From contig BTUO01000001.1 in assembly GCA_045862895.1 (NCBI GenBank), positions 998,890 through 1,062,889 on the forward strand: DNA of 64,000 bases, in the 5' to 3' direction. This document shows, piece by piece, positions 21,176 to 50,048 of the stretch. This DNA is from Acidobacteriota bacterium. Its GTDB lineage: Bacteria > Acidobacteriota > Thermoanaerobaculia > Multivoradales > JAGPDF01. The notes beneath the pieces are model-generated. The model was not told where the DNA came from, did not search any database, and saw only the letters and a program-made list of their open reading frames with translations. The position numbers and the translations under genes were made by a program. How positions within the stretch are numbered: the first letter of the stretch is position 1; each line of letters starts with the position of its first letter.

Positions 21176-21960
21176 CGGGCAGGCGAGCGCCGCGCCAGCC
21201 AGAAGCCGCTGTCACGCCTCTCGCCACACGCTCCAGGGTGCCCCACCGGGCTGCGCGCGAGCCCCTCGTCTCCTCCGGGGCGTCGTGCTCGCCCAGCCAC
21301 CCACCCTGGAGCAGCCCGTGCCTCTTCGTCCTCGCGCCCTCACCGACGTCAAGAGTGCGAAGGGCGGTCTCGTCATCCTCCTCCTTTGATCGCGGTCTCC
21401 GCCCAACGTCCCGTAAACCGTGCCCGCGGTGCGCCCGGCCGCAAGGCCAAGCCTCCGGCGCGCCGACTGACGTCAAGCGGCGCGGCCTTGTCGGCCGGGC
21501 TTCGTTCACCCCGGGCTCCCACCGGGCCGTGTTGGACGGTAACCACAACCAAAGGAGAAGGCAGATGACCAACAAGACCGCAATCACCCTCTACGGCAAC
21601 GTCGGCGGAGACCCGGAGACCCGCACCATCCCCGGCAAGCAGGTCACGAAGCAGTTCTACGACCCGATCATCGACGACATGGTCGAGCGCGAGTTCACCA
21701 CCCCCGAACGCGAGGTCCGGACCTTCTCGATCGCCGTCAGCAAGAAGGACGCCGAGGGCAACGACGTCACCCGCTGGATCCGCTGCGATGACTGGAACCG
21801 CCTCTCCCGCCTGGTCGGCAAGGGCGACCGTGTGAAGGTCAAGGGTCACTTCCGCGAGCGCACCTACCAGAAGGACGGCGAGACGAAGACCGTGCGCGAC
21901 TTCGTCGTCGAGGACCTCAAGATCGAGCGCCACAAGATCCGGCAGCGGGCGGAGTAGGAA
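21176..21960 (+). repeat. direct repeat copy 1 (~780 bp; structured leader + ssb-like gene), ~90% identical to 49274-50048
   Basis: Direct comparison of the two regions in the sequence. Similarity begins at GGCAGGCGAGCGCCGCGCCAGCC and ends at the ssb-like stop codon. Substitutions and small indels are concentrated in the non-coding leader. Confidence 0.85.
21565..21957 (+). CDS. SSB-like OB-fold protein (130 aa, no acidic C-terminal tail), copy 1
   Basis: The RBS AAAGGAGAAGG lies 4 nt before the ATG. Third-position GC exceeds 90%, whereas the in-frame upstream extension 21136-21564 has markedly lower third-position bias. ITLYGNVGGDPETRT ... KGDRVKVKGHFRERTYQKDGETKTVRDFVVEDLKI matches the SSB OB-fold pattern. 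Confidence 0.65.
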   Translation: MTNKTAITLYGNVGGDPETRTIPGKQVTKQFYDPIIDDMVEREFTTPEREVRTFSIAVSKKDAEGNDVTRWIRCDDWNRLSRLVGKGDRVKVKGHFRERTYQKDGETKTVRDFVVEDLKIERHKIRQRAE

Positions 21961-21975
21961 CCGCGCGGGGCCTCG

Positions 21976-22000
21976 GGGGCCGCCCCGTCGGGGCGGCCCC
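21976..22000 (+). terminator. GC-rich hairpin GGGGCCGCCCC-gtc-GGGGCGGCCCC after ssb-like copy 1
   Basis: Perfect 11-bp stem with a 3-nt loop, 19 nt after the stop. There is no U-tract, which is common in high-GC genomes. Confidence 0.4.
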
Positions 22001-22146
22001 GCTTCGCGCGGCGTCCTTCGCTGCGGGTCACGGAGGCCCTACCCGTACGGGTGGTCGCCACACCGGGTGGATGTTGCATCGGAGAGGATCGCCGCCCCAA
22101 CCCGAAAGGTGGTGCGCAGCGCTGGAGGTCGTCGTAGCGTTTCGAC

Positions 22147-22500
22147 ATGCGACGGCTCCGGCACAGGCTCGCGTGGTTGGCGGCACTCGCCGCCTTGGCG
22201 TTTGCCGGAGTCCTTCCGCTCTGTGGCGACTGCGGATCGTGCGGCTCGTCGTGCCCGGGTCGCGACGCCTGCCACGAGGTGGCGACGTGGCTGGATGGCC
22301 CGTCGTGCTGCGCATCGGCTGGCCCGGCGGCCGCTGCCGATGCGGCGAGCCAACTCGCGGCCAAAGTCGTGGCGCCGCTGCCCGAAGTCGCCGCCACGCT
22401 CCCGCGCGTCGACGGCCACGTATTGGTCGGCCAGCGCGCGACCTGTCAGGTTTCCCGCACGCTCGATCGCTGTACCCTCTTCTCCTCCTTCCTCATTTGA
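22147..22500 (+). CDS. small secreted Cys-rich protein (CGDCGSCGSSCPGRDACHE...SCCAS)
   Basis: N-terminal signal-like hydrophobic segment. Third-position GC is about 85%. It lies upstream of the cupredoxin operon. Weak RBS and overlapping alternative ORFs keep confidence low. Confidence 0.3.
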   Translation: MRRLRHRLAWLAALAALAFAGVLPLCGDCGSCGSSCPGRDACHEVATWLDGPSCCASAGPAAAADAASQLAAKVVAPLPEVAATLPRVDGHVLVGQRATCQVSRTLDRCTLFSSFLI

Positions 22501-22634
22501 TCTGCCTGCGGTAGCCGCCGCGGCGGCCGGACAGCCCTCCGCGTGGGAGGTGCTGCTCGACCGTCGCTTCGCGCTCGCGTGCGCTCTGCGTTTTCCCGCC
22601 GAGCGCCAGCGGATCCACAGGGGGGAGAAAGTCG

Positions 22635-23153
22635 ATGTCTCGATTCGGCCTCGGTTCGATCGTCGCGCTCGCGGCGCTAGCCGTCGTCCTTGCCGGCTTG
22701 CTCGGGTTCTCCGGTGAAGCGGATACGGCGCCGGGGCCAGTGGAGCGAGAGATCCTGGTCGTTGCACGGTCCTACGCGTTCGAGCCGCCGGTGATCCGGG
22801 CGCGGCGCGGCGACACGCTGCGGCTGCGCTTTGCCTCCACCGACGTGGTCCACGGCTTCTACCTCGAGGGCCACGACCTCGACGTGACGATCCCGCCGCT
22901 GTCGCGCCGAGTTCTCGTCGCGCGCGCCGGCCGGTCGGAGGCGACCGAGGAGGTGGTTCTGGTGCTGGAGCGGTCCGGCAAGTTCCGCTTCCGCTGCTCG
23001 AAGACTTGCGGCGCGATGCACCCGTTCATGCAAGGGGAGCTGATCGTGGGGCCGAATCACCTCTTCGTCGGCTCTTCGATTGCGTCGGTCGCTCTGCTCG
23101 CGGTCGGGCTGGTGTGGGCCCTCGCCTCGCCCGGCCGTGGAGGATCGCGATGA
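22635..23153 (+). CDS. CuA-type cupredoxin domain protein (CoxB-like copper centre)
   Basis: An N-terminal TM or signal segment. The CuA-like ligand set is [11 protein letters not shown] ... [12 protein letters not shown] (compare COX II CSELCGINHAYM). RBS GGGGGAGAAAG. Confidence 0.6.
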
Positions 23154-24601
23154 GCCTCCCGATCGTCACTGACCGCCCGTCGCGAGGGATCGACCTCCTG
23201 GCGCGCCTTCCGCTCCTGCGCCGACTCTCGTTGCAGCGGTGGTTCCCGCTCGCAGGTGCTCTCTTCCTGCTCGTGCTCGGAGCGGTCCTGGTCGCGGGCG
23301 GGTTCACCGGCACTCCCGTGGGCAATCGGAGCGGAATCGTGGTGGCGGTCTGGATCCTCTGGTGGTTCCTGTTGATCGCCGTGCTGCTGCCGTTCGGCGC
23401 GCGGGCCTGGTGCGGGGTCTGTCCGGTTCCGGTGATCGGCGACTGGGTCCAGCGTCGCCGGCTCACGAGCGTCGCCGACGAAGACCCGCGCGCCACGTCG
23501 GTGGAACCCGGCAAGCTGATCGGCCGCAATCGCTATTTCGGCCTAGCGTGGCGGTGGCCACGTGCGTTGTCGAACCTCTGGCTCCAGAACCTGGGGTTCC
23601 TCCTGCTCGCCACGTTCAGCGTGGTGCTGCTCACCAGCCCGCTCGCGAGCGCGGTCGCCGTCGTCGGCATGGTGCTCGCCGCGACCGCCGTTGCCTGGGT
23701 CTTTCGGCAGCGGACCTTCTGCCGCTACCTCTGTCCGGTCGGTGGCTTTCTCGGCCTCTACTCGATGAGCTCGACGCTCGCCGTGCGCGCCCGGGAGGCG
23801 AGCGTCTGCGCGGCGTGCCGGGAGAAGAGCTGTCTCGCCGGCAGCGCCGGCGGCTGGGGCTGCCCGTGGCTCCAGTACCCGAGCCGGCTCGACCGGAACA
23901 ACGCCTGCGGCTTCTGTCTCGAGTGCGTGAAGAGCTGCTCGCACGGCAACATGACGATCTTTCTCCGCCGGCCCTTCGCCGAGCGGCGGCTCCTCGGCTG
24001 GGACGAGGCGTTCAAGGCGTACCTCATGGTCGCTCTGGCGATCGCCTACTCGGTGGTCTACCTCGGGCCCTGGGGTGAGCTCAAGGCCGCGGCGAACGTC
24101 GGCGAGGCGAGCGGCTGGCGCGCCTTCGGGCTCTACGCCGGCGCCTTGTGGATCCTGGCTCTGGTCGTCGTGCCCGGCGCCTTCGTGGCGGCGGCCTGGG
24201 GCGGTCGCCGCCTCGCCGGCGCGCGGCTCGCGTTGCGCGATGCGGCACTCGCTTCGGCGAGCGCCCTGGTCCCCTTCGGCCTGCTGGCCTGGATCGCGTT
24301 CAGCGTGCCGCTGATCCTCGCCAACGGCAGCTACGTGCCGAGCGCGTTATCGGACCCCTTCGGCTGGGGGTGGGACCTGTTCGGCGGCGCTGCGATGCCC
24401 TGGAGCCCGCTGCGGCCGCACTGGACGCCCTGGCTCCAGTCCGGTCTCGTCCTGGTCGGCCAGGGCGCGGGGTTCCGCTCGGGCTGGCTCGCTCACCGGG
24501 ATCTCGTGGGCGATCGCCGTGTCGCGGCGATCGCGTTCGCGCCGTCGGCGCTGCTGCTGACGGCGATCGCGCATGTGCTGCTGGTGCTCTATGCGGGGTG
24601 A
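23150..24601 (+). CDS. NosR/NapH/CcoG-like polyferredoxin membrane protein
   Basis: WCGVCPVP and [10 protein letters not shown] motifs plus a Cys cluster CAACREKSC...[11 protein letters not shown], with multiple TM helices. The ATG overlaps the upstream stop. Confidence 0.6.
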
Positions 24602-24605
24602 GGCG

Positions 24606-25619
24606 ATGACCGCATCGATCGGCGAGAGGGTGGCTGTCCTGGCGGTGGCCGCGGCGCTGGTTGCGGCCGTGGTGATTCCGCTGCGCATCGAGAGCGGGCG
24701 GCGCGACGCGCGGGAGAGCTCCATCCGGACGCTGGAGCTCACCGGCCTGATGCGCCAAGGCATCTGGACCGACGAGCGCGTGACGGCGGCCAACGCCTGG
24801 CGCGACGACTTCCGACCTGCATGTCCGGTGCTCGTGGTCGGCGAGCCGGTGAGGCTGCGCCTCGCGAGCGCCGACGTCGTGCACGCATTCGCGCTGCCCG
24901 ACCTCGGGGTCGCGCCGGTCGAGGTCTATCCGGGGCGGCCCGTGGAGGTCGTCGTCGTGCCGCGCGAAGCGGGAGTCTTCGCGTTCTACTGCACGACGGT
25001 CTGCGGCGACGCCCACTTCGGGATGCGCGGTGTCGTCCAGGTGGTCGAGTCGCCCGGTGTCCAGGTCGCCGAGTCGCCCGGTGTCGCCGCGGCTTCGATC
25101 CCCGCGACGCCCGGTCGCGACTACTGGCGCGCTGAGGCACCCGCCGACGACGCGGGAATGGTGGCGCGGGGAGCCTGGATCTTCCGGCGGCAGGGGTGTG
25201 TCACTTGCCACGGGGAGGGGGCGGCCGGGGGCGTCGCCAATCCCGGGGCGATGAACGCCACCGTTCCGGCGCTGGCGGACCTCGCCCGTCGCACCTTCCT
25301 GTTCACGTCGGCCGACGCGGCGTCGGTGGTGCGCGCGCTGGAGCAAGGGCCGCTCACCGCGCTCGACCAGGCACCTGAGATCCCGCTCTACGCCGTCGTG
25401 AAGAAGCAGTACCTGGCGACCCACCAGCTCGTCGCCTCCGGGCGCGTCGCCGCGCCGATGGACCCCACGAGCTCCCCTCCGCCGCTCGAGATGCCGGCGT
25501 GGGGGGCCCGCCTGACCGGCCGGGACATCGACTCCGTCCTCGCCTACCTGTTGACCCTGAGCCAGGACCGCACCGCGACCGCCGCGGCCGGGCCGGGCTC
25601 GACCACGTCGAAGGAGTGA
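24606..25619 (+). CDS. CuA-cupredoxin/cytochrome c fusion protein
   Basis: CuA-like CTTVCGDAHFGM followed by the haem motif CVTCHGEG, with an N-terminal TM segment. Confidence 0.6.
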   Translation: MTASIGERVAVLAVAAALVAAVVIPLRIESGRRDARESSIRTLELTGLMRQGIWTDERVTAANAWRDDFRPACPVLVVGEPVRLRLASADVVHAFALPDLGVAPVEVYPGRPVEVVVVPREAGVFAFYCTTVCGDAHFGMRGVVQVVESPGVQVAESPGVAAASIPATPGRDYWRAEAPADDAGMVARGAWIFRRQGCVTCHGEGAAGGVANPGAMNATVPALADLARRTFLFTSADAASVVRALEQGPLTALDQAPEIPLYAVVKKQYLATHQLVASGRVAAPMDPTSSPPPLEMPAWGARLTGRDIDSVLAYLLTLSQDRTATAAAGPGSTTSKE

Positions 25620-25623
25620 AGCC

Positions 25624-26241: not shown

Positions 26242-26295
26242 TCCGGGCTGAGTCGAAGCTCGCCGCCGCCAGAGTGGATCCGGCCGGGGCGAGCT

Positions 26296-27645
<1,350 letters not shown>

Positions 27646-27697
27646 GCCTATATCCGCAGTCCCCCGTACGTCGCTGGCTGCGTCCGCGCGATGCGTT

Positions 27698-28492
27698 CTA
27701 CCGTCCCTGGACGTGCCGGAGCGTCTCCTCGGCGTCGAGCTCGCGTGTCGCGTTGCCGGTGCGCACCAGGAGGTGCGAGCCGTGGCCGTCGCGCAGGAAG
27801 ACCGGGCTCGGCGCCGGCTCGACCGTGACGCGGCAGACGTCGCGGTCGCCGACCCGTTGGAAGAGGACGTGGACGAAGGTGCACGACGCCGTGCCGAGCT
27901 TCTGCGCCACGAGATCGAGGATCAGGCGCTCGAAAGCGTCGTGGCTCCTGCCGCGCAGGGTCGCGAGATCGGGTTCGATCCCGAGGACCTCTCCGGAGTC
28001 GGCGACGCCGATCAGCAATGTTCCCCCACCGCCGTTCAGGAAACCGGCGATCGAGCGGACGATCGGCGACTCGAGCTCACGATGGACACAGCCATTGCGG
28101 TAGTCCCAGCGGATCGACGCCTTGAACTCCAGGCTCTGTCCTTCTCCCTGGCGAATCAGAGTCGCGAGATCGCGATCGAGCAGCCGGGCCAGGCGCTCCA
28201 CTTGCCGCTGGTGGCGCCGAGCCGCCACCGTGAAGAGACCGGAGAAGAGCCCGAGGGCCGTGCCGAAGGCCGCGAAGCGGCCGGTCATCACGAGCATGCC
28301 CGGCTCGAAGGCCGCGAGCAAGCTGTCGAGCGCAAAGCGCCAGGCCCGCCCGAGCCCAGCGGTATCGGGGGCGTGCTCGAGCCAGTAGATGACCATGGTG
28401 GCTGGGTGGAGCAGCAGCACCCCGAGTGCTCCCCCGATCGCCACATGGGCTCCGACCAGCGCCCAGGCGCCGACCCGCGCGATTCGTCGCAT
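27698..28492 (-). CDS. membrane-anchored AlbA_2 (Schlafen-like) domain protein
   Basis: Two N-terminal TM helices, then GEGQSLEFKASIRWDYRNG...LLIGVADSGEVLGIEPD, typical of Pfam AlbA_2 (PF04326). Start taken at MRRIARVGAW. Confidence 0.5.
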   Translation of the reverse strand: MRRIARVGAWALVGAHVAIGGALGVLLLHPATMVIYWLEHAPDTAGLGRAWRFALDSLLAAFEPGMLVMTGRFAAFGTALGLFSGLFTVAARRHQRQVERLARLLDRDLATLIRQGEGQSLEFKASIRWDYRNGCVHRELESPIVRSIAGFLNGGGGTLLIGVADSGEVLGIEPDLATLRGRSHDAFERLILDLVAQKLGTASCTFVHVLFQRVGDRDVCRVTVEPAPSPVFLRDGHGSHLLVRTGNATRELDAEETLRHVQGR

Positions 28493-28520
28493 CACGGCCG
28501 CTGATTCCGATCCGCCGGCC

Positions 28521-29726
28521 TCAGTTGTCGGCGGCCGGAGGCGGGGCCTCCGCCGGCATCGGAACACTCGTCCCGGGACCGGGACCCGGTGGAGCCAGGA
28601 CCAACGAGAGCGTGCGGCGCTCGCCGCCGCGGTAGAGGTCCAGAGTCACGGACTCGCCAGCCTGCTTGCTCTCGAGCCAGTCCAGTAGTTCGCCCGAGGA
28701 ACGGATCGCGCGGCCATCCACCGCTTCGACCAGGTCACCGGCGAGCCACCCTCCGGGAGTCTTCCGTTGGGTGCCCGTCACGCCGAGGCGTGCCGCTTCG
28801 CTGCCCTCGTCGACCGTGAGTACCAGCGCACCCGCGAGGCCGAGCGCCTCCACCAGGGCGTCGGGCGCCAGCCCGAAGCCAAGGCTCGGGCGGACGATGC
28901 GCCCATGCCGAACGAGCTGGGGCACGGATCGCGCCACCGCCGCCGCCGGAATCGCGAAGCCCACGCCGGCGGACGAACCGGAGGTGCCGTAGATCGCTGT
29001 GTTGACGCCCACCAGCCGGCCACGGCTGTCGATCAACGGGCCGCCCGAGCTCCCGGGGTTGATCGCCGCGTCGGTCTGGATCACGTCGTGGATGCGGACG
29101 CCCGACGGGGAGTCGACGGTGCGACCGAGGGCGCTCACGACCCCGGTGGTCAGGGTGTGATCGAAGCCGAAGGGGTTGCCGACGGCGAGCACGGTCTGTC
29201 CCACCCGGACACGGGTCGAGTCGCCGACGGGCAACGGCACAAGTCGCTCTGCCGGAGCGTCGACTCTCAGCACGGCGAGGTCCAGCTCTGGCGCAATGCC
29301 GACCAGGCGCGCACGCCAATGCGAGTGGTCGGCGAGCGCCACCTCGACCTGCTCGGCTCCGTCGATGACGTGGAAGTTCGTGACGACATGGCCTTGGCGA
29401 TCCCAGACGAAACCGGAGCCCGCGCCGAGCGGCAGCTCGTGCACGGCACCGGCCGATTCCTCGACATGCCGCGAGAAGGTGCGGATGCAGACCACCGATC
29501 GAGAGGCTGTGTCGAAGAGGTCGATCGTCGCGGCCTCGGCGGCGAGCAGGGAATTGGCCGGTTCGCCTTCGGACGCCGGAGCGGCGATCGTCGGCGCCCC
29601 CGCCTTCATTGTTGCTGCCGTTCCGGGTCGTACCCCCCAAGCGGCGACCACGATCAGAATCAACCACACCGAGCCGCCGCGACAGCCCAGCCGCAAATCG
29701 GCAAGCGATTTCTCATCGCGCTTCAT
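28521..29726 (-). CDS. htrA: HtrA/DegP-family serine protease with PDZ domain
   Basis: Catalytic triad context HVVTNFHVIDGA, DLAVLRV and GNSGGPL-like PGSSGGPLID, plus a C-terminal PDZ. RBS AAAGGAGCAAGG before the ATG (end coordinate 29726). Confidence 0.85.
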   Translation of the reverse strand: MKRDEKSLADLRLGCRGGSVWLILIVVAAWGVRPGTAATMKAGAPTIAAPASEGEPANSLLAAEAATIDLFDTASRSVVCIRTFSRHVEESAGAVHELPLGAGSGFVWDRQGHVVTNFHVIDGAEQVEVALADHSHWRARLVGIAPELDLAVLRVDAPAERLVPLPVGDSTRVRVGQTVLAVGNPFGFDHTLTTGVVSALGRTVDSPSGVRIHDVIQTDAAINPGSSGGPLIDSRGRLVGVNTAIYGTSGSSAGVGFAIPAAAVARSVPQLVRHGRIVRPSLGFGLAPDALVEALGLAGALVLTVDEGSEAARLGVTGTQRKTPGGWLAGDLVEAVDGRAIRSSGELLDWLESKQAGESVTLDLYRGGERRTLSLVLAPPGPGPGTSVPMPAEAPPPAADN

Positions 29727-31472: not shown

Positions 31473-31531
31473 CAAGGGAAGCCTCCGTTTCGTTGGTTTC
31501 GTCGTCCATCGGGGTGAAATGGGGATCGGAG

Positions 31532-34500
31532 TCATGCCACGCTCGGCTCGAGCTCCGGTTCCGAACCGGGCTGCGGCTCGGGGTTCTTTTCGATCTCGCG
31601 CCGCCGCCAGAGCTTGTAGATGGCCGGATAAACCAACAGCTCGAGGGCGAACGAGGTGATGAGGCCGCCGATCATCGGGGCGGCGATTCGTTTCATGACG
31701 TCCGACCCGGCCGAGGTCGACCACATGATCGGCAGGAGGCCCATGAAGGCCGCCGCCACCGTCATCATCTTGGGTCGGGCCCGCTTGACGGCGCCGTGGA
31801 CGATGGCCTCGTCGACCTCGCCCTCGTTCCGCAGCAGGCCGCGCCGCTTGGCGTCGTCCCAGGAGAGGTCGAGGAACAGCAGCATGAAGACGCCGGTCTC
31901 GGCGTCGAGGCCGAGGAGAGCGATCATGCCGACCCAGGCGGCGATCGAGACGTTGTAGTCGAGCAGCCAGAACAGCCAGATCGCGCCGATTGCGGAGAAC
32001 GGGACCGCCAGCATCACCACCGTGGCCTTGAAGCTGGAGCGGGTGTTCGCGTAGAGGAGGGCGAAGATCAACACCAGCGTGATCGGCACGACCACCTTGA
32101 GGCGCTCGCGGACGCGGATCATGTTCTCGTACTGCCCGCTCCAGGTGAGCGAATACCCAGCCGGGAGCGTTACTGCGCTTTCGACCCGTCGCTTGGCCTC
32201 CTCGACATAGCTGCCGACGTCGCGCCCGGCGATGTCCACGTAGACGTAGCCGGCGAGGAACCCGTTCTCGTCACGAAGCATGGACGGCCCCTGGAGCAGC
32301 CGGACGTCGGCGAGTTGGGCGAGAGGTACCTGGGCCATCGTGGGGGTCGGCACCAGCACGCGACCGAGCCTCTCGGGGTCGTCCCGCAGCTCGCGTGGAT
32401 ACCGGACATTCACCGGATAGCGGGCGCGGCCCTCGATGGTGGTGGTGACGTTCTCGCCGCCGATCGCCGCCGCGATCACCATGTGCAGGTCGTCGATGAC
32501 GAGACCGTAGCGAGCGAGCTGGTCGCGGCGCGGAGAAATGTCGAGGAAGTAGCCGCCGGCGACTCGTTCGGCGTAGGCCGACCGCGTGCCGGGTACGTCG
32601 CGGACGGCCTGTTCGATCTCGGCGCCGAGACGTTCGATCTCGGCCAGGTCGGCGCCGAAAACCTTGATCCCCACGGGAGTGCGGACTCCCGTCGTCAACA
32701 TGTCGATGCGGGCCTTGATCGGCATCGTCCAGGCGCTGGTCACGCCGGGGCTCGCCAGGGCGCGGTTCATCTCGTCGACGAGCTCGTCCCAGGAGATGTG
32801 GTCGGGCCAGAAGGGGCGGAATGCAGGCTTCGTCCAATCGGGCCAGTCCGAGTACCACCGCGGCTTGGCTCGCCACTCGTCCTCGGGTTTCAGCACTACC
32901 GTGGTCTCGAACATCGAAAACGGAGCCGGGTCGGTGGACGTGTCGGCGCGCCCCGCCTTGCCGAAGACCCTCTCCACCTCCGGGAAGGCGCGCAGCACCT
33001 TGTCCTGGGCAATCAACAGCTCCTGCGCCTGGGCCACGGAGATGCCCGGAAGCGTCGTAGGCATGTGAAGAATGGTGCCTTCGTTGAGTGGCGGCATGAA
33101 CTCGGAGCCGAGGGTGAAATAGGCCGGTACGGAGATCGCGACCAGAAGCAGCGCCGCACCGATGACCTTCTTGGGGTGGCGGAGGACGAAGCGACAGGCC
33201 GGCTCGTAGACGCGGAAGATCGAGCGGCTGATCGGATGACGCTCTTCGGCATGGTAGGTACCGACGAGGGCGCCCGTCGCCAGCCGAGCCAGCCACCGCG
33301 GCCGGAAGCTGAACGGATCGATCCGGGCGAACATCATGCGCAGCGCGGGGTCGAGGGTGATGGCTAGGAGCGCGGCAATGGCCATCGCCAGGTTCTTCGA
33401 GAAGGCGAGGGGCTTGAAGAGGCGCCCCTCCTGGTCGACGAGGGCGAACACCGGCAGGAAAGCGACGGCGATGACCAGGAGCGAAAAGAAGACTGATGGA
33501 CCCACCTCCATCAGGGCCTCCAGGCGGACCTGATGAAAGCTCCCCTTGCGACCACCGACCTGCCAGTGGTGAATCTTGTTGTAGGCGTTCTCGACCTCGA
33601 CGATCGCTCCATCCACGAGGACGCCGATCGAGATGGCGATTCCTGCGAGCGACATGATGTTGACCGTCAGGCCCATGAGGTACATGGGGATGAAGGCGAG
33701 CAGCACCGAGATCGGAATGGTCAGAATGGGAACGACCGCGGAAGGCACGTGCCAGAGGAAGAAGAGGATCACCAACGAGACGATGATCATCTCGATCACC
33801 AGCTCGTGCTTCAGCGTGCCGATCGCGCGTTCGATCAGCGTCGAGCGGTCGTAGGTGGTGACCACTTCGACGCCCGCGGGGAGAGACTGCTTCAGGTCCG
33901 CCAGCTTCGCCTCGACAAGGCGGATGACGTTGAGCGCGTTCTCCCCGTGACGCATCACCACGATGCCCCCGACGGTGTCGCCTTCACCGTCGAGGTCCGA
34001 AACGCCACGGCGGATCTCGGGACCGAGCTCGATGTTCGCTACGTCGCGCAGCAGCACCGGGACGCCCCCGGGAGCGACCTTGACCACGATCTGCCCGAGG
34101 TCGTCCGTGCTCTTGGCGTAGCCACGGCCGCGCACCATGAACTCCCGCCCCGACAGCTCCAACAGGCGTCCGCCGATCTCGTTGTTCGAACGCCGCACGG
34201 CGTTGACGACCGTGTCGATCGGAAGTCCATAGGCCGCCAGCCGGTTAGGGTCGACCGTCACCTGGTACTGCCTCTGGTAGCCACCGATCGAGGCGACTTC
34301 GGCGACCCCGGGAACGGACTGCAGGGCGTAGCGCAGCGTCCAGTCCTGGTAGGAGCGCAGCTCGTCGAGCGAGTGCTTCTTCTCGCGGTCGACGAGGGCG
34401 TACTGGTAGACCCAGCCGACGCCGGTCGCGTCCGGACCGAGCTCGGTCTGGACGCCCTCGGGGAGCCGCGACTGGATCTTGGACAGATACTCGAGGACCC

Positions 34501-34822
34501 TGGAGCGTGCCCAGTAAAGGTCGGTGCCGTCCTGGAAGATCACGTAGACGTACGAGAACCCGAAGTCGGAGTAGCCGCGGATCGCTTTGACCTTCGGCGC
34601 TCCGAGCAGGTTGGCGATGATCGGGTAAGTGACCTGGTCCTCGAGGATGTCGGGAGAACGGTCCCATCGCGAGTAGACGATGACCTGGGTGTCGGAGAGA
34701 TCCGGCAGAGCGTCCAGTCGGATCTGCCGCAAGGTGTAGCCGGCGAGGACGATCAGGACAGCGACGGCCCCGAGCACGAGGAATCGGTTTTCGGCGGAGA
34801 AGCGGATGATGCGCTTGATCAT
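31532..34822 (-). CDS. cusA: heavy-metal efflux RND pump CusA/CzcA family
   Basis: 1096 aa. The N-terminus MIKRIIRFSAENRFLVLGAVAVLIV and overall HME-RND architecture match. The antisense ORFs 31445-33367 and 33533-34849 are rejected. Confidence 0.9.
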   Translation of the reverse strand: MIKRIIRFSAENRFLVLGAVAVLIVLAGYTLRQIRLDALPDLSDTQVIVYSRWDRSPDILEDQVTYPIIANLLGAPKVKAIRGYSDFGFSYVYVIFQDGTDLYWARSRVLEYLSKIQSRLPEGVQTELGPDATGVGWVYQYALVDREKKHSLDELRSYQDWTLRYALQSVPGVAEVASIGGYQRQYQVTVDPNRLAAYGLPIDTVVNAVRRSNNEIGGRLLELSGREFMVRGRGYAKSTDDLGQIVVKVAPGGVPVLLRDVANIELGPEIRRGVSDLDGEGDTVGGIVVMRHGENALNVIRLVEAKLADLKQSLPAGVEVVTTYDRSTLIERAIGTLKHELVIEMIIVSLVILFFLWHVPSAVVPILTIPISVLLAFIPMYLMGLTVNIMSLAGIAISIGVLVDGAIVEVENAYNKIHHWQVGGRKGSFHQVRLEALMEVGPSVFFSLLVIAVAFLPVFALVDQEGRLFKPLAFSKNLAMAIAALLAITLDPALRMMFARIDPFSFRPRWLARLATGALVGTYHAEERHPISRSIFRVYEPACRFVLRHPKKVIGAALLLVAISVPAYFTLGSEFMPPLNEGTILHMPTTLPGISVAQAQELLIAQDKVLRAFPEVERVFGKAGRADTSTDPAPFSMFETTVVLKPEDEWRAKPRWYSDWPDWTKPAFRPFWPDHISWDELVDEMNRALASPGVTSAWTMPIKARIDMLTTGVRTPVGIKVFGADLAEIERLGAEIEQAVRDVPGTRSAYAERVAGGYFLDISPRRDQLARYGLVIDDLHMVIAAAIGGENVTTTIEGRARYPVNVRYPRELRDDPERLGRVLVPTPTMAQVPLAQLADVRLLQGPSMLRDENGFLAGYVYVDIAGRDVGSYVEEAKRRVESAVTLPAGYSLTWSGQYENMIRVRERLKVVVPITLVLIFALLYANTRSSFKATVVMLAVPFSAIGAIWLFWLLDYNVSIAAWVGMIALLGLDAETGVFMLLFLDLSWDDAKRRGLLRNEGEVDEAIVHGAVKRARPKMMTVAAAFMGLLPIMWSTSAGSDVMKRIAAPMIGGLITSFALELLVYPAIYKLWRRREIEKNPEPQPGSEPELEPSVA

Positions 34823-34839
34823 GGCGATCTCCCCTCGGC

Positions 34840-40370: not shown

Positions 40371-40381
40371 CATGGCGCGCC

Positions 40382-40807: not shown

Positions 40808-40887
40808 AAACATCCAGCGCGTCCGTGGGCCGCGCGCGAGGTGATGCCTCGCGGTCTGGCCAGCAGCCGTCCCACCGATGGGCGACG

Positions 40888-41592: not shown

Positions 41593-41641
41593 TCTCATTT
41601 CGACTTCTCCTTGTCTGGCTTTGGTCTACGGTCGGTTGCGG

Positions 41642-42253
41642 TCAGTGGTGAGGCGCGGTCGGAGGGGAGGAAGCGTCGTCGCCGGCAAGGAAGCGCTCCA
41701 TCTCGAGCTCCTGCTCCAGCTCGGCCCGCGAGATCGGGTTGTGACGCTTCATTTCGGCGAGCTCCGCTTCGGTGAGCGCGGGGAGCAGGCGAATGAGTTG
41801 CACGAGCTCCCAGGTCTCGGCGTCGTCCTCGGGCGAAGCGGTGCCCCAGGCCGGCATGCCGGTCAGCTTGATGCCGTTCTCGATGATCCAGAAGAGCTCG
41901 CCGTCGCTGAGCTCCTGGGTCGCGGGCGCCGTCATGTCCGGCGCCCGTGGGTAGAGGTTGCGGCCCATCTTGGTGTCGCCCTTGCCGTCGTTGCCGTGGC
42001 AGGACGCGCAATGGTCTGCCCAGTGGGTGCGGGCCGAGCGCAGCCCTTCGGGCGTCGGCAGGAGCGGGTTCCGTGCCCGCGCCGTGCTGGCGGGAATCAG
42101 CAGGCCGCGAGCGGCTCTCGCCATCACGACTTCGGCGCGGGGTGGATCTTTGCGCGCCGAGATCCCGGTGAGCGCGAACCCGATCGCAGCGACGGACGCC
42201 ACTCCGCCGACCACGGCGAAGAGGCGGACGATCCACTTACCCACCGTGCTCAT
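41642..42253 (-). CDS. membrane-anchored c-type cytochrome
   Basis: TM anchor, then the haem-binding motif CASCHG. Confidence 0.7.
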   Translation of the reverse strand: MSTVGKWIVRLFAVVGGVASVAAIGFALTGISARKDPPRAEVVMARAARGLLIPASTARARNPLLPTPEGLRSARTHWADHCASCHGNDGKGDTKMGRNLYPRAPDMTAPATQELSDGELFWIIENGIKLTGMPAWGTASPEDDAETWELVQLIRLLPALTEAELAEMKRHNPISRAELEQELEMERFLAGDDASSPPTAPHH

Positions 42254-43601
42254 GGCTCGGCTCCTTTTCCGGCGCCGCCGGGTCGACCCGCCACGACACC
42301 GTGCCCGGCGGGTAGTCGTACCAGCCCGGATCCTCGTAGCTGGTGATCCCTTCGCGGATCTTCAGCACCGTGAACATGCCGCCCATCTCGATCGGTCCGA
42401 ACGGCCCCGTGCCGGTCATCATCGGCAGCGTGTTGGGCAGGCCGGGCATGTGCTCGCTGTGCGCCGCGTGCTCGGCCATGCCGGAGGAGCCCATCGCCAT
42501 GTAGCCCTCTACCAGGCGCGAGATCTCACGCGAGACGCCCTGCTGATCGACGCCGATCATGTTCGGGATGTCGTGGCCCATCGCGTTCATCGTGTGGTGC
42601 GTCTTGTGGCAGTGGAGCGCCCAGTCGCCGGGGTTGTCGGCGACGAACTCGAAGGCGCGGGTGGTGCCCGGCATGACGTTGATCGTCGTCTCCGGCCACC
42701 AGGCCGAGCGCGGGATCTGGCCGCCGTCGGTCTCCGTGACCCACATCTGGTGACCGTGGAGGTGGATCGGGTGGCTCGTCATGCTGATGTTGGCGAGCCG
42801 GATGCGGGTCCGATCGCCGAGCCGGCAGACCAGCGCGTCGGTGCCGGGGAACGCCTTGCCGTTGAAGGTGAAGAGATTGAAGTCGAGCATCACGGACGGG
42901 TCGGGCGTCTTCGTTCCCGGTCGAATGAAGAACATGTGCGGGAAGATGCAAAAGTCGCGGTCGATCTGCCGCTCGGGGCGCTTCGGGTGGATGATGAAGA
43001 AGCCCATCATCCCCATCGCCATCTGGACCATCTCGTCGGCGTGCGGGTGGTACATGTGCGTCCCGTGCTGTCGCAGCGTGAACTCGTAGACGTAGGTCTC
43101 GCCCGGTTGGATCTGCGGCTGGTTCAACCCGCCGACGCCGTCCATGCCCGCCGGCAGCAGGATGCCGTGCCAGTGGATCGTGGTGTGTTCCGGCAGCCGG
43201 TTCTCGACGAACAGGCGGACGCGATCGCCCTCGACCGCCTCGATCGTGGGGCCCGGCGACGTGCCGTTGTAGCCCCAGGCGTTGACCTTCATGCCGGGCG
43301 CGAACTCGACCTCGACGGGCTCGGCAACGAGATGGAACTCCTTCACTCCGCCATTCATGCGGAAGGGGAGGGTCGGTACGTTTGGCGTTATGACCGGTGT
43401 ATAGGGCAGGCCGCGCGCGGCGCGTCTCGCCGCCGGAGCGGGGGGCGGCGTCGCGGGCGGATCGGCGGGCTGGCCGTGCCCCGCGTGCGGAGACTGAGCG
43501 AGGGCCTCGCCTCCGCCCAGGGAGAGGCGGGCGCGATCGAGCAGGGCCGCGCCCGCCGCGAGCAGGGCGGCACGAGAGAGCCAGGTGCGGCGCGAAATCA
43601 T
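42237..43601 (-). CDS. multicopper oxidase (CueO/CopA/CuoB-like), Tat-secreted
   Basis: Tat motif SRRTWLSRAALLAAGA. Copper ligands HWHG, HPHADEMVQMAMGMMG, HPIHLHGH and HCHKTHHTMNAM. Confidence 0.85.
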   Translation of the reverse strand: MISRRTWLSRAALLAAGAALLDRARLSLGGGEALAQSPHAGHGQPADPPATPPPAPAARRAARGLPYTPVITPNVPTLPFRMNGGVKEFHLVAEPVEVEFAPGMKVNAWGYNGTSPGPTIEAVEGDRVRLFVENRLPEHTTIHWHGILLPAGMDGVGGLNQPQIQPGETYVYEFTLRQHGTHMYHPHADEMVQMAMGMMGFFIIHPKRPERQIDRDFCIFPHMFFIRPGTKTPDPSVMLDFNLFTFNGKAFPGTDALVCRLGDRTRIRLANISMTSHPIHLHGHQMWVTETDGGQIPRSAWWPETTINVMPGTTRAFEFVADNPGDWALHCHKTHHTMNAMGHDIPNMIGVDQQGVSREISRLVEGYMAMGSSGMAEHAAHSEHMPGLPNTLPMMTGTGPFGPIEMGGMFTVLKIREGITSYEDPGWYDYPPGTVSWRVDPAAPEKEPSHEHGG

Positions 43602-45453: not shown

Positions 45454-45482
45454 GCCCTACGAGGGCGCGGCGACGCTCCGTC

Positions 45483-45905: not shown

Positions 45906-45940
45906 GCCGGCGCAGAGTCTGAGCCCGGGGGCGCCGCTTG

Positions 45941-48583
45941 TCAATTCGACCCTGACGAAACCGAGGGGCCGCTCGCCGGGCTCGCAGGCGGCGCTCCGAG
46001 CGCTCCGCCGCCGACTTCGACGCGGAAGGCGCGCAGACGCAGCGCGTTGGCGATGACCGACACGGAGCTCAGGCTCATCGCAGCAGCCGCCAGCATGGGC
46101 GACAGTAGCCAGCCGGTGAAGGGATAGAGCAGCCCGGCCGCGATGGGCACTCCGGCGGCGTTGTAGGCGAAGGCCCAGAAGAGGTTCTGCCGGATGTTGC
46201 GCATCGTGGCGCGCGAGAGCTTGCGGGCGCGGGCGATGCCCCGCAGATCGCCGCGCACCAGCGTCACGCCTGCGCTCTCCATCGCGACGTCGGTGCCGGT
46301 GCCCATCGCGATGCCGACCTCGGCGCGGGCGAGCGCGGGGGCGTCGTTGATGCCGTCTCCGGCCATGGCGACGAAGCGACCTTCGGCCTGGAGCCGCTCG
46401 ACCTCGCGCACCTTCTGGTCGGGAAGTACCTCGGCGACGATCGTGTCGATGCCGAGGGTCCTACCCACCGCCTCCGCCGTCTTTCGGCTGTCGCCGGTCA
46501 GCATGACGATGCGGATCCCTTCGCCGTGCAGGGAGCGAAGTGCCTCGACCGTCGTGGCCTTGATCGGGTCCGCGACCCCCAACAGGCCGGCGAGGCGGTC
46601 TCCAACCGAGAGGTACATCACCGTCTGGGCTTCGCCCCGGAGTCGTTCCGCCTCGTCACGAAGCGAGGTGACGTCGACGCCGCTTTCCTCCATGAGCTTG
46701 AGGTTGCCCAGCGCGACACGCTTGCCGGCGACGAGCCCGGCCACGCCCTTGCCAGTCAGTGACTCGAAATCGACGACCTCGGCGGCCTCCAGACCGCGTT
46801 CACTCGCTCCCGCGAGGATCGCCGCCGCCAGCGGATGCTCGCTGCCGCGCTCGATCGCCGCCGCGAGCCGCAGGACCTCGTTCTCGTCGAATCCGGTTGC
46901 CGGTCGCAGGGTGACGAGCCTGGGCTTGCCCTCGGTGAGGGTGCCGGTCTTGTCGACCACCAGCGTGTCGACCTTGCGCAACAGCTCGATCGCTTCGGCG
47001 TTACGGAACAGGACCCCCATCGAGGCCGCCTTGCCCGTCGCCACCATGATCGACATCGGCGTCGCGAGCCCGAGAGCGCACGGGCAGGCGATGATGAGCA
47101 CGGCGACCGCATTCACCAGGGCGTGGGCCAGACGTGGCTCAGGTCCCAGAACCGCCCACGCCGCGAAGGTCAGGGCCGCGATCGCCAGGACGGCGAGGAC
47201 GAACCAGCCGGAGATCTGGTCGGCGAGCTTCTGGATCGGCGCGCGGCTGCGCTGCGCCGCGGCGACCATGGCGACGATTCGCGCGAGCAGGGTCTCGGAG
47301 CCGACCTTCTCGGCGCGCATGACGAAGCCGCCGGCGCCGTTGATTGTGGCGCCGACGACAGGGTCGCCAGGTCCCTTCGAGACCGGCATCGGCTCGCCCG
47401 AGACCATCGACTCGTCGATCGCGCTGGTGCCCTCGAGCACGACGCCGTCGACCGGAACCTTCTCTCCGGGGCGAACGCGCAACCGGTCGCCTACCGCGAC
47501 GAGCTCGAGCGCCACGTCCTCTTCGACGCCATCCTCGCGCAGCCGGCGGGCGCTCTTGGCTGCGAGTCCCAGCAGCTTGCGGATCGCCGCGCCGGTCGCG
47601 CCCCGTGCCTTGAGCTCGAGCACCTGCCCGAGCAGGACGAGCGCCGTGATCACCGCCGCCGCCTCGAAGTAGACGGGTACGTGGCCGTTGGCGTCGCGGA
47701 AGGTCGCCGGGAAGATCCCGGGCACCAGGGTCGCCACCAGGCTGAAGCCGAATGCCACGCCGACGCCGAGACCGATCAGCGTGAACATGTTGAGGCTGCG
47801 GTGGCGCACCGAGGCCACCGCGCGTTCGTAGAACGGCCAGGCGGCCCAGGTACAGACGGGGATCGCCAAGAGCATCTCGAGCCAGAGCCGGGTCGATGCC
47901 GACAGGGTGCTCGCGACCGGCGTGCCCGGGAGGAAGGCGTCGCCCATGACCAGCACGAGCGTGCCCAGGGCGAGCGGCACGGAGACCCAGAAGCGGCGCC
48001 GCATGTCGAGGTACTCCGCGCTCGGCCCCTCCTCGAGCGTGGCTACGCGCGGCTCGAGCGCCATGCCGCAGATCGGGCAGCTGCCCGGCGCGTCGCGCAC
48101 GATCTCCGGGTGCATCGGGCAGGTCCACTCGGTCCTGGTGGCGAGCGGCGCCGGCATCACCGGCTCCAGGGCCATGCCGCACTTCGGGCAGGCTCCGGGC
48201 CGGTCGCTTTCGACCTCGGGGTGCATGGGGCAAGTCCACTTCGTGCCGCCCGGCGAGGCTTCCGCCGGTGCGGCCTTGGGTTGCGGGGCGTCGCCGGAAC
48301 CGGCAGGCTGCAGGTGAGGCTCGGTCGCTGCCTTTGCCGAGGTCGTCGCCGCCGGCTTCCCCGCGAGCGGGTAGCGCGTCGGATCGGCGTCGAACTTCGC
48401 CTTGCAACCCGCCGAGCAGAAGTGGACGACCTCGCCACCGCGCTCGGAACGGTGCTTCGAGGTCGCGGGATCCACCGTCATGCCGCAAACCGGGTCCAGG
48501 GCGCCCGTGGCGGTCGGCTGCGTGGTCGTCGAATGCGTCGGGTGAGAATGCTCGTGGCGGTTGGGGTCGTCGTGTGCGCTCAT
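45941..48583 (-). CDS. copA: Cu(I)/Ag(I)-translocating P1B-type ATPase with N-terminal YHS domain and two CPMHPE/CPxCGM metal-binding modules
   Basis: YHS motif CGMTVDP...HFCSAGC. Modules [21 protein letters not shown] and [21 protein letters not shown]. Transport motif CPC ([14 protein letters not shown]), phosphorylation site DKTGTLT, and a C-terminal [10 protein letters not shown]. The alternative-frame and antisense ORFs across this region are rejected. Confidence 0.9.
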
Positions 48584-48620
48584 GGCTTCGATCTTCCCTC
48601 CTCGACTGAAGCAGACGGTC

Positions 48621-49208
48621 CTAGCGCGAAACCCTTACACCGCAACTGCAGTCGAGACAGCCGTGGTCGGCGCAGGTGCGGCAAGAGCGTTGGAGATCGG
48701 CCCGCAGCGCCGTGCGCGCCCGGTGGAGCCGGACCATGGCGTTGTTGGCGGTGAGGCCCGCCCCGCGGGCGAAATCGGCCGGCCGGCTTCCTTCGAGGTC
48801 GACCCGGCGCAGGATCTCGCTGTATTCCGGACGGAGCGCCGGGAGCAGCGCCTCGAAGCAGTGGCAGAGGGCGGCCTCGATCTCCGGCGGCGGCTCGCTC
48901 GCGTCCCCGAGCTCGCGCGCCAGCGCTTCGAGGCCACGCGCCTCCGCGCCGCGTCGGCGATAGTGGTCGACCACCGCGTTTCGCAGCAGCCGGTAGAACC
49001 AGGCCACCGCCCGCTCCTCATCGCGAATCTCTCCCGCCTGCTCGAGTCCGCGCACGAACGCCTCCTGCAGGATCTCCTCCGCGGCAGCCCGACTCTCGAC
49101 TCGGCGCTCGAGAAACGCGAGGAACCGCCGGTGATTCTCGACCCAGGCGGCGACGACCGCGGGCTGGGGTAGTTCCGGCGCTGGCTGCTCGTGTTCGAGA
49201 CTCTCCAT
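48621..49208 (-). CDS. ECF sigma factor with C-terminal Cys-rich extension (CorE-like, copper-responsive type)
   Basis: Sigma-70 region 2 and 4 patterns ([12 protein letters not shown]..., ...[35 protein letters not shown]), then the tail [15 protein letters not shown]. Start chosen at MESLEHEQ. It sits directly upstream of copA and the multicopper oxidase, as does CorE in Myxococcus xanthus. Confidence 0.65.
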
Positions 49209-49273
49209 CACGCGACGATACTCCCCTGGCGAAGACCGTCCGCCGCAGGACTGCCTGAGGCAGGGCAGGCGAG

Positions 49274-50048
49274 CGCCGCGCCAGCCAAAGACCGCTGTCA
49301 CGCCGCTCGCCCCTCGCTCCAGGGTGCCCCCAACCGGTCTGCGCGCGAGCCCCTCGTCTCCTCCGGGGCGTCGTGCTCGCCCAGCCAGTCACCCTGGAGC
49401 GGCCCGTGCCTCTTCGTCCTCGAATCTCCACCGACGTCTAGAGCGCGAAGTGCGGGCTCGTCATCCCTCTCCTTCCGTCGCGGTCCCCGTCCAACGTCCC
49501 GGAAATCGTCCCCGAGGTGCGCCCGGCCGCAAGGCCAAGCCTGCGGCGCGCCGACTGACGTCAAGCGGCGCGGCCTTGCCGTCCGGGCTTCGTTCACCCC
49601 GGGCTCCCACCGGTCCGTGTTGGACGGAAACCACAACCAAAGGAGAAAGCAGATGACCAGCCAGACCGCAATCACCCTCTACGGCAACGTCGGCGGAGAC
49701 CCGGAGACCCGCACCATCCCCGGCAAGCAGGTCACGAAGCAGTTCTACGACCCGATCATCGACGACATGGTCGAGCGCGAGTTCACCACCCCCGAACGCG
49801 AGGTCCGGACCTTCTCGATCGCCGTCAGCAAGAAGGACGCCGAGGGCAACGACGTCACCCGCTGGATCCGCTGCGATGACTGGAACCGCCTCTCCCGCCT
49901 GGTCGGCAAGGGCGACCGTGTGAAGGTCAAGGGTCACTTCCGCGAGCGCACCTACCAGAAGGACGGCGAGACGAAGACCGTGCGCGACTTCGTCGTCGAG
50001 GACCTCAAGATCGAGCGGCACAAGATCCGGCAGCAGGCGGAGTAGGCG
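49274..50048 (+). repeat. direct repeat copy 2 (~780 bp; structured leader + ssb-like gene)
   Basis: See copy 1. The ssb-like proteins differ at two residues (N3S and R to Q near the C-terminus). Confidence 0.85.
49653..50045 (+). CDS. SSB-like OB-fold protein, copy 2
   Basis: RBS AAAGGAGAAAG, then ATG at 49653. About 98% identical in amino acids to copy 1. Confidence 0.65.
   Translation: MTSQTAITLYGNVGGDPETRTIPGKQVTKQFYDPIIDDMVEREFTTPEREVRTFSIAVSKKDAEGNDVTRWIRCDDWNRLSRLVGKGDRVKVKGHFRERTYQKDGETKTVRDFVVEDLKIERHKIRQQAE

Follow-up and report, generated by a model that had tools for sequence, protein, structure and literature searches.

A duplicated leader-ssb module on either side of a copper island in a conjugative element of Acidobacteriota

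Why should a copper island be framed by two copies of an ssb-like gene? The question arises in a 64-kb stretch of DNA (the window) from an Acidobacteriota bacterium of the class Thermoanaerobaculia (contig BTUO01000001.1, positions 998,890 to 1,062,889), where two long direct repeats, each with a gene related to those for SSB, the protein that binds single-stranded DNA, lie on either side of a block of copper and metal genes. An initial annotation proposed that the repeats bound a composite copper unit. From the comparison of sequences, the copper island is instead one of many interchangeable cargo blocks, in slots that are each headed by a copy of the repeat, and the repeats are very probably two copies of a conserved module that belongs to the backbone of integrative conjugative elements (ICEs) of Thermoanaerobaculia. 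The part of the module that precedes the gene, its leader, may act in single-stranded DNA (ssDNA) like the elements Frpo, ssi, and sso; we hold this more tentatively, at a little below an even chance. The two ideas combined, a duplicated Frpo-ssb-like module with interchangeable cargo, are our best explanation for the locus, and one that we modestly favor.

Two copies of one module

We searched the window for repeats with a repeat finder, pairwise alignment, and BLAST. There is a single long direct repeat: positions 21177-21958 match 49263-50046 with 94.6% identity over 784 columns (BLAST), which bears out the two direct repeats of about 90% identity that had been annotated. The repeat finder gave just one other, lesser pair in the 64 kb (103-129 nt, at 61.5 and 63.1 kb). 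The annotated boundaries were approximately right, but the conserved structure starts about 4-6 nt further left, at the stem bases 21173 and 49259, and with these bases the repeats extend over 21173-21957 and 49259-50045.

Each repeat comprises a non-coding leader of about 390 nt, a gene for a tail-less SSB of 130 amino acids (aa) with an OB fold, and a private terminator. The tail-less ssb-like gene and its long leader had been recognized in the initial annotation; we add that the leader is a structured element in its own right. In the left copy, the leader contains a branched hairpin domain (domain 1, 21173-21321, strand ambiguous, from an RNAalifold consensus) and a longer hairpin (domain 2, 21372-21583, minus strand, from folding and covariation), followed by the ssb-like gene (21565-21957, plus strand, from Pfam, AlphaFold, and Foldseek) and a GC-rich, terminator-like hairpin (21962-22010, plus strand). 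The right copy has domain 1 at 49259-49409 (again strand ambiguous), domain 2 at 49460-49671 (minus strand), the gene, also of 130 codons, at 49653-50045 (plus strand), and a terminator-like hairpin at about 50056-50086 (plus strand). The homology of the copies stops at the stop codon, and the terminator hairpins beyond it are unrelated.

The two copies are unevenly diverged. As annotated, the substitutions are mainly in the leader: of its 390 columns, 38 (9.7%) differ, among them a 2-nt indel, versus 4 differences in the 393 nt of the coding sequence (1.0%; positions 21572, 21574, 21930, and 21947). In between, the 355 nt from 21575 to 21929 have no differences at all. Two conservative amino-acid changes had been counted, but there are three (N3S, K4Q, and R127Q), plus one synonymous change. 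The initial annotation also saw purifying selection in this pair. However, the window pair has a pN of 0.010 and a pS of 0.011, and the divergence at synonymous sites is about 9-fold lower than in the leader. At the divergence of the leader, 8 or more synonymous differences were to be expected; 1 was observed (Poisson P ~0.002). Also, each window leader is nearer to leaders of other genomes (6.4-7.4%) than to its partner (9.7%). Because pN is similar to pS and synonymous sites are far below the divergence of the leader, we attribute the pattern to gene conversion or recombination, not to purifying selection; this indicates exchange between the two copies behind the identical coding tract. Two points weaken the argument. 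The coding sequence is well conserved among copies generally (median divergence 3.3%, with some inter-genome pairs at 0.8%), which makes gene conversion less convincing as the sole cause, although the contrast between leader and coding sequence inside the window pair stays significant. Also, all of the relatives are metagenome-assembled genomes (MAGs), and repeat polishing could make the coding tract look more alike in the two copies than it is.

The protein belongs to the SSB family of OB folds (Pfam PF00436, E = 2e-12). The top Foldseek matches of its AlphaFold model (pLDDT 88.9) are bacterial SSB cores (probability 1.00). In structure it comes closest to SsbB and SsbA of S. aureus and to mycobacterial SSB cores (TM scores of 0.6-0.75), and the sequence similarity to solved SSBs is weak (E ~1e-5). 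The OB-fold core is common to this protein and to PF00436, especially to short paralogs such as SsbB of Firmicutes. It differs from bacterial SSB in being just 130 aa long, in lacking the disordered linker and the acidic tip (of the D-D-D-I-P-F type), and in having an extra beta-hairpin (about residues 26-45 in the model). The C terminus is basic (...ERHKIRQRAE, ending at residue 130), and the N-terminal motif is LxGNVGxDPE. Across 14 near copies of the gene, pN/pS is 0.30: by this measure the protein is under purifying selection in general, unlike the signal from the window pair. The family is essentially restricted to metagenomic contigs that resemble Acidobacteriota. Its 90%-identity cluster (P0001) has 406 member sequences, and metagenomes are the source of nearly all homologs; environmental data are thus rich in the module. 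When both window proteins were looked up exactly, the only hit was the right-copy protein, on a 944-nt Logan contig.

Contexts of the module in related genomes

In a scan of genomes, one per species, the module turned up at 25 genome loci. Related MAGs of Thermoanaerobaculia have 1-4 copies per genome: two in ACID-4 (29,000 nt apart), three in MAG_60, four in TPBS_167 (two of them on one contig, 30 kb apart), and four in MAG_190 (one of them degenerate). Many copies are at contig ends, with the contig terminating inside the ssb-like gene, which is to be expected of a repeat.

Upstream of the module there are three contexts: the RadC/orf224 backbone; the end of the copper island with the extracytoplasmic function (ECF) sigma factor; and a block with two-component, cytochrome b561, and hemerythrin genes. 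The left boundary of the module shifts by up to about 50 nt between these contexts, and therefore the module is not a precisely excised mobile unit. Downstream contexts, counted directly after the terminator, fall into at least nine unrelated classes. These are the copper island (the window and loci L007, L012, and L013) with a variant of it (L010 and L022); a molybdopterin-oxidoreductase/SLAC1 block (L009, L018, and L023); HEPN with type I restriction-modification (L006 and L011); type I restriction-modification with an AAA_13 ATPase (L003); OLD-family and SMC-like proteins (L005); a DEAD/MZB helicase (L015); a class found at L017 and L019; another at L004; and the MADS class, after the right copy in the window. 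Across related MAG loci, then, the ssb-like copies stand in unrelated contexts, and with 1-4 copies per genome this speaks against the composite, copper-specific unit that was originally annotated; copies in unrelated contexts are what the initial annotation itself had named as refuting evidence.

Cargo blocks lie directly after the terminator of ssb, and elements with several blocks have a module copy before each one. In the window, the copper island fills the slot between copies 1 and 2, and the MADS defense system fills the slot after copy 2. Homologous recombination between copies could delete, duplicate, or swap the intervening block.

The bracket around the copper block, which lacks a transposase as annotated, does recur. 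The same order (RadC side, module, copper island, ECF sigma, module) is present in ACID-4 (L013 with L003) and in TPBS_167 (L012 with L009), at 82-95% identity, and the right-hand junction of the island is also present at L016 of MAG_190. The bracket is therefore inherited, not a one-off, and because it is conserved in at least three MAGs, it must be reasonably stable. The RadC-side copies at L004, L005, and L015 are followed by other cargo, and a strict empty site (a RadC-side copy joined to the window's right flank), as predicted by the initial annotation, was not found among the relatives. At L005, an intact RadC-side copy is followed 270 nt on by a 3'-terminal piece (~100 nt) of a second ssb-like gene (10670-10766), with about 33 codons, the stop codon, and its own terminator hairpin. 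This remnant looks like the scar of a deletion that removed the second module plus whatever lay between. Deletion or amplification of the copper island itself, which had also been proposed, is mechanistically plausible because the mosaic pattern implies exchange between copies, and we infer that it may occur; against it, no deletion, amplification, or circular-junction product of the island was observed in the sequences compared.

Could the repeats nevertheless be the ends of a self-contained composite copper unit, one that moves, excises, or amplifies as a whole when these ends recombine, with an ssb-like gene that is incidental or specific to the island? This would account for the exact bracket with no transposase in or beside the repeats, for its recurrence in ACID-4 and TPBS_167 and the right junction at L016 of MAG_190, and for the signs of exchange between copies. 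But the left copy sits in the RadC-orf224-module backbone even where the island is absent (L004, L005, and L015), and the module heads at least nine unrelated cargo blocks. TPBS_167 has a third copy 30 kb further on; L010 carries the island variant, and a single copy was detected in its 4.5-Mb contig; and neither a circular junction nor an empty site was found among the relatives. We consider this explanation improbable, and largely refuted by the range of contexts. Even more remote is the idea that assembly or polishing of metagenome-derived sequence produced the duplication, or the identical coding tract, as an artifact. Such repeats do break short-read assemblies, as seen in the many related contigs that terminate within the ssb-like gene, and mis-mapped reads can homogenize repeats during polishing. 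However, at least two copies with the same flanks are present in independent assemblies (ACID-4 and TPBS_167), the two leaders in the window differ at 38 positions, and each copy has its own flanks and terminator.

The layout of cargo slots is similar to the variable-region hotspots of SXT/R391-type ICEs, at which conserved backbone segments recombine and cargo is thereby exchanged, in that a conserved backbone has set positions for unrelated metal-resistance or defense cargo and mosaicism is evident between copies as well as between elements. It differs in that the flanking homology is duplicated within one element, with one module per cargo block. Unlike in a composite transposon, the repeats hold only the leader and the ssb-like gene, with no transposase or insertion sequence, and their left boundaries differ between contexts.

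Some copies of the module are altered. The copy at L015 (3293-4075) has decayed, with a GTG start, a frameshift, and many broken pairs. In the copy at L016 (2195-2939), the GCAA-capped segment is swapped for another hairpin, and there are inserts of 12 nt (right arm) and 9 nt (coding sequence). Near-identical modules (93-97% protein identity) were also seen on contigs of 1.6-17 kb (L001, L002, L008, L019-L020, and L023-L025) whose bins are assigned to Gemmatimonadota, Myxococcota, "delta proteobacterium", and Phycisphaerae; this could reflect mis-binning of the repeat or a broad host range.

The leader and its hairpin

We rejected the possibility that the leader is coding. Its frame is open merely because of its high GC content (about 70%), the in-frame translation is rich in Arg, Pro, and Ser, and the indels among copies (1, 2, 11, and 13 nt) are not multiples of three. 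A consensus of 17 near copies (RNAalifold) has two hairpin domains. The closing stem of domain 1 has three compensatory pairs between contexts and includes bases to the left of the earlier boundary. Domain 2 is a long imperfect hairpin of about 200 nt, and its base pairs the Shine-Dalgarno (SD) sequence (21552-21557) and the start codon with 21372-21386: CTCCTT pairs with the ribosome-binding site AAGGAG, and GTCATC pairs with GATGAC at the start codon.

The leader is not a known family, as Rfam gave no match at the gathering score for the whole window and only chance-level matches for the leader (E >= 0.23). An nhmmer profile found the whole leader upstream of ssb-like genes with just 68% identity, at L027 and L028, and domain 2 alone at L029. 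Scanning metagenome contigs with a 24-nt core of domain 2 gave 17 further loci, nearly all with an ssb-like gene directly downstream; the ssb-like proteins at these loci are about 26-97% identical to the window protein (tblastn). The leader is still present before ssb-like genes whose proteins have as little as about 45-70% identity. Across 31 diverse copies, 97.5% of the cells in the core helices of domain 2 are paired, and 9 pairs are changed on both sides. None of 500 shuffles reached these values, and slid controls reached 32-50%.

The apex of domain 2 is freely variable: some near copies have a 13-nt insert containing TGACGTCA, there are changes of the triloop, and L016 has a replaced hairpin. 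In the window, the 13-nt insert with the palindrome TGACGTCA lies at about 21464-21476 and about 49552-49564, and it is absent from other copies. The related sequence CCGACGTCAAG is in the linker between the two leader domains, and the loop sequence associated with the folded hairpin is GGAGGCTTGG. The lower stem of domain 2 (21403-21411 with 21527-21535) reads GCCCAAC...GTTGGAC (GTCCAAC in distant copies), which fits the core of integron attC sites, RYYYAAC/GTTRRRY. We rejected the attC reading and consider the likeness coincidental: the GTT is not constant (about 7 copies have GTC), an integrase is lacking, and the cargo, at 27-30 kb, joins after the terminator instead of at the hairpin. A sigma-54 or ECF-type promoter reading of TTGGCCTTGC was also rejected, as the spacing is wrong.

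Which strand folds? For domain 2, the predictions agree on the strand complementary to the mRNA, which is the template for the ssb-like gene. In 31 of 31 copies, the minimum free energy (MFE) is lower for the minus strand, by 19 kcal/mol on average. For the left window leader as ssDNA, the values are -137.2 kcal/mol for the minus strand (z -8.6) and -108.6 for the plus strand (z -4.1). In the helices common to both predictions, the non-Watson-Crick cells on the minus strand are 39 G.T and 3 A.C, and the MFE structures have 243 wobble pairs on the minus strand versus 65 on the plus strand. In the 28-bp basal stem of the left copy, there are six G.T pairs, all of which are A.C mismatches in the mRNA sense. 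Examples of wobble-tolerant pairs among the 31 copies are U.G in 17 and U-A in 14; A-U in 23, G.U in 5, and G-C in 1; and C-G in 20 and U.G in 8.

Related hairpins are found before other genes as well. At L027, three copies of domain 2 in a row precede the ssb-like gene, an 81-aa gene, and a gene for a SLOG(DprA-like)-SSB fusion; at L042, a second copy of domain 2 precedes a 308-aa gene. A search for further hairpins with a covariance model of domain 2 gave 14 extra matches, and all 14 are co-oriented with genes. With this model, a full-length domain 2 was found at L029, just upstream of a 212-aa open reading frame (ORF) that precedes a gene for a DUF6094 methylase. In the window, a mini-hairpin akin to the apex of domain 2 lies at 19599-19655 (minus strand; model R1, 29.5 bits, E = 1.8e-5), just upstream of the JAB domain of RadC. 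Its minus-strand motif is stem-CAAGGC...CCGGAGGGCTCGGCCTTG-stem, and the same match is present before RadC at L004. Mini-hairpins are also present at several places in L030, L032, L038, L039, L042, and L046, and the Holophagales locus L021 has four of them, one just upstream of a 44%-identical ssb-like gene. The motif common to the hairpins, on the template strand, is stem-CAAGGCC-(variable apex)-CCGGAGGCTTGG-CCTTG-stem. Fragments of domain 1 occur at L005, after RadC and ahead of the orf276 and DUF6094 methylase genes, and, in shorter form, upstream of the leader at L010 and L012.

This arrangement is reminiscent of the Frpo/ssi elements, which Masai and Arai reportedly described in 1997 as single-stranded-DNA promoters, with ssb, in the leading region of F/ColIb-P9-type plasmids. 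Frpo lies directly upstream of SSB genes, and genes for SSB, methylases, and anti-defense proteins have the transferred strand as their template (PMC11541004). In F, Frpo1 and Frpo2 are direct repeats with 92% identity, 5 kb apart, and were noted as a recombination substrate for deleting the intervening segment (PMC9849209). In the F sequence (NC_002483), ssb and psiB are co-oriented with traM/traJ, and a hairpin of about 320 nt precedes ssb. Similarly, the leader is a long imperfect hairpin right before an ssb gene in a conjugative element; several direct-repeat copies per element precede co-oriented establishment genes (ssb, methylase, and radC-type); these genes are co-oriented with the relaxase and transfer genes; and the copies, about 90% identical, could serve as a substrate for recombination. 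In both, it is the template strand that folds, and we infer that here, too, it is the transferred strand. Because a template-strand hairpin lies 5' of ssb and is repeated before co-oriented radC, methylase, and SSB-type genes, we read the module as Frpo-ssb-like. There are differences: the leader has two domains, and domain 2 is about 200 nt instead of about 320 nt; the whole unit, including the ssb gene, is duplicated in the window, with a cargo island separating copies 28 kb apart; the acidic tail is missing from the SSB; and the element has a GC-rich leader and is probably integrated in the chromosome of an Acidobacteriota host.

Several results count against a leader that works in this way. 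A scan of the duplex and inspection of either hairpin arm gave no sigma-70 pair of -35 (TTGACA) and -10 (TATAAT) boxes, such as the stem of Frpo/ssi elements re-forms; the arms have only the weak motifs TTGNCR, TTGGCC, or TTGCGG, without a -10 partner. When the leader was compared to 72,556 PLSDB plasmids by distant blastn, there was a single chance match of 40 nt and no similarity to known Frpo/ssi. Because the boxes and the homology are absent, the leader is not an Frpo by the usual definition, and our claim is just that it may work like one. The base of the hairpin includes the SD and the start codon, which a purely DNA-level promoter would not need, whereas the hairpin in F ends about 30 nt before the ribosome-binding site. 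The F hairpin, as a control, has only a slight template-strand advantage (z of -6.5 versus -5.7), and domain 1 of our leader has no clear strand preference, as the shared helices have A.C and G.U cells in about the same number. About 10% of the pairs are wobbles, which is more typical of RNA than of DNA hairpins and keeps a minus-strand RNA among the rivals. Finally, the origin of transfer (oriT) was not located: YATCCTGY occurs in the window at chance level only, inside genes, and the 357 nt upstream of the relaxase hold nothing diagnostic of oriT. The ssb modules lie downstream of the genes for the type IV secretion system (T4SS), and a "leading" position depends on parts of the element outside the window.

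The leader could equally be an sso/ssi-type priming site, as in ICEBs1. Single-strand origins (sso) are known from rolling-circle plasmids and from ICEBs1 (PMC4595007). They share with the leader a strand- and orientation-specific structure in a conjugative element, one that would be active only while the element is single-stranded. They differ in having no fixed link to the 5' ends of ssb genes and in occurring, as a rule, in single copy, and no RSB or CS-6 motifs were recognized here.

Two other explanations put the hairpin in RNA. The leader might be a riboregulator, that is, a 5' untranslated region (UTR) on the plus strand that hides the SD and AUG of the ssb-like gene and its neighbors and is opened by a ligand, by temperature, or by autoregulation by the SSB-like protein. 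Indeed, the SD and start codon are paired in nearly all of the 31 copies, the basal helix has compensatory changes (such as TTTCGGGG/CCCCGAAA versus TTTTGGGG/CCCCAAAA), and the element is always directly 5' of an ORF and in the same orientation. We still think that a riboregulator is unlikely: the plus strand folds worse in every copy, with 39 non-canonical A.C cells and just 2-3 G.U; no promoter was detected upstream; and the left boundary of the right copy is at the first stem base, so that no conserved promoter region is left. A minus-strand fold could instead belong to an antisense RNA that covers the 5' UTR, SD, and start and represses the ssb-like mRNA, as in FinP-traJ or CopA-CopT. Selection for structure on the minus strand, about 10% G.U pairs (typical of RNA), and complementarity to the SD and AUG would all fit. 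However, the promoter of such an RNA would have to sit in the opening codons of no fewer than four unrelated genes (ssb-like, SLOG-SSB, 81-aa, and 308-aa), and because conservation ends at the start codon of these four, there is no room for a shared one. No promoter or T-rich terminator was found on the minus strand at the expected places, and the apical loop is free to vary (the 13-nt indel, the triloop changes, and the replaced hairpin of L016). An antisense RNA thus seems less credible still than a riboregulator, with only a slim chance of being correct.

An ssDNA-active leader would work as follows. Domain 2 folds on the template strand of the ssb-like gene, which, by the geometry of F and RP4, would be the transferred strand. 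When ssDNA enters the recipient, the hairpin would provide a double-stranded entry site for transcription, priming, or both, and the ssb-like gene and the co-oriented establishment genes (radC, the DUF6094 methylase, and SLOG-SSB) would then be expressed early. We speculate that once the DNA is double-stranded, read-through RNA would fold into the same helix and hide the ribosome-binding site, and that a transcript initiated within the hairpin would keep it exposed. If the leader is Frpo-like, initiation is predicted on minus-strand ssDNA only. More specifically, the leader might represent an undescribed ssDNA-active family that lacks sigma-70 boxes, co-evolves with the tail-less SSB, and provides, in its copies, both start sites and portable homology; we find this possible but would not count on it.

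The conjugative element, its cargo, and its significance

We mapped the genes of the window with Pfam and PADLOC scans of its proteins. On the plus strand, Pfam identified a relaxase (358-3132), the TraG/VirD4 coupling protein (3548-5761), TrbB (7160-8155), the TrbC pilin (8162-8482), TrbE/VirB4 (8814-11276), TrbL (12487-13308), TrbG/CagX (13835-14935), TrbI (14536-16206), ParA (16203-16943), and a ParB/KorB-like protein (16936-17877). Between ParB and RadC, on the same strand, is a DUF5677/DitA-like protein (17960-19525; PADLOC DitA, E = 4e-20). The longest ORF for the RadC-like JAB protein is 19538-20212 (plus strand; Pfam PF04002, E = 9e-36). Its true start is probably near 19680, as the Pfam domain spans residues 104-222 of this ORF; RadC of L027 has 177 aa. 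After RadC and before the left module comes orf224 (20181-20855, plus strand), a backbone ORF of 224 aa with high GC at third codon positions (GC3). It is conserved in L004, L005, L012, and L013, and it had no match in Pfam or PADLOC.

The ssb-like genes, the relaxase, and the T4SS genes are all on the plus strand. The window contains the relaxase, the coupling protein, and the T4SS genes; the integrase and the ends of the element lie beyond it, and no element-encoded recombinase was identified in the 64 kb. Because close relatives lie within contigs of 2.5-5.5 Mb, from MAGs of Thermoanaerobaculia/Acidobacteriota, we consider the element to be an ICE rather than a plasmid. PLSDB contains no plasmid that resembles it by a near DNA search, a search with the SSB-like protein, or the distant search with the leader.

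The first cargo slot (22011-49258; Pfam and PADLOC) contains the 27-kb copper/metal island, with genes on both strands, mostly on the minus strand from 26296 on. It begins with a cupredoxin-like protein, a Fer4_5 protein, and COX2/cytochrome c (22515-25619, plus strand). Further on, Pfam identified CusA (31532-34822), along with CusB and CusC; a multicopper oxidase (42237-43601) and an outer-membrane efflux protein; a P-type ATPase with HMBD/YHS domains (45941-48583); and the ECF sigma factor (48621-49301). HtrA and HD-GYP proteins are also present (Pfam). At 26296-28567 (minus strand), the island encodes a protein akin to type II restriction enzymes (PADLOC REase_II, E = 3e-11) as well as a Schlafen/AlbA_2 protein, neither of them related to metal homeostasis. 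Across the first island genes (22000-25000), AT skew is strongly negative (-0.30), and cumulative GC skew has its minimum at about 22-23 kb.

The second slot (50114-63983, minus strand; PADLOC and Pfam) contains the MADS-type defense system: a mad8-like gene for 1863 aa (50114-55705; PADLOC E = 2e-44, for the C-terminal part only), mad7 (55702-57387; E = 3e-153), mad6 with NERD and two kinase domains (57387-61583; E = 1e-130), and two genes similar to mad5 or type I specificity subunits (61583-63010 and 63225-63983), all on the minus strand. The lesser direct repeat of the window (61487-61615 and 63129-63257, 103-129 nt, 79-85% identity) lies within these two adjacent genes, which suggests duplicated target-recognition modules that could recombine and change specificity.

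What is new in this locus, and well supported, is a strand-specific hairpin family that is tied to a tail-less SSB in conjugative elements of Acidobacteriota. To our knowledge, essentially nothing is known about how conjugative elements outside of Proteobacteria and Firmicutes express their first genes or are converted to double-stranded DNA, and the Frpo searches that we know of depend on similarity of sequence and on the promoter boxes of E. coli. In this locus there is a well-conserved, covariation-supported, strand-specific candidate, with a partner protein, in an uncultured and environmentally abundant phylum. The one-module-per-slot architecture stacks metal-resistance and defense islands in a single element, and from it one would predict that, under selection, the copper island is lost, swapped, or amplified by recombination. 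If the leader does act in ssDNA, its repeated copies, set at intervals along a large transferred strand, would be starts for priming or early expression and would also be portable homology with which to assemble, swap, delete, and amplify 30-kb islands for metal resistance and phage defense.

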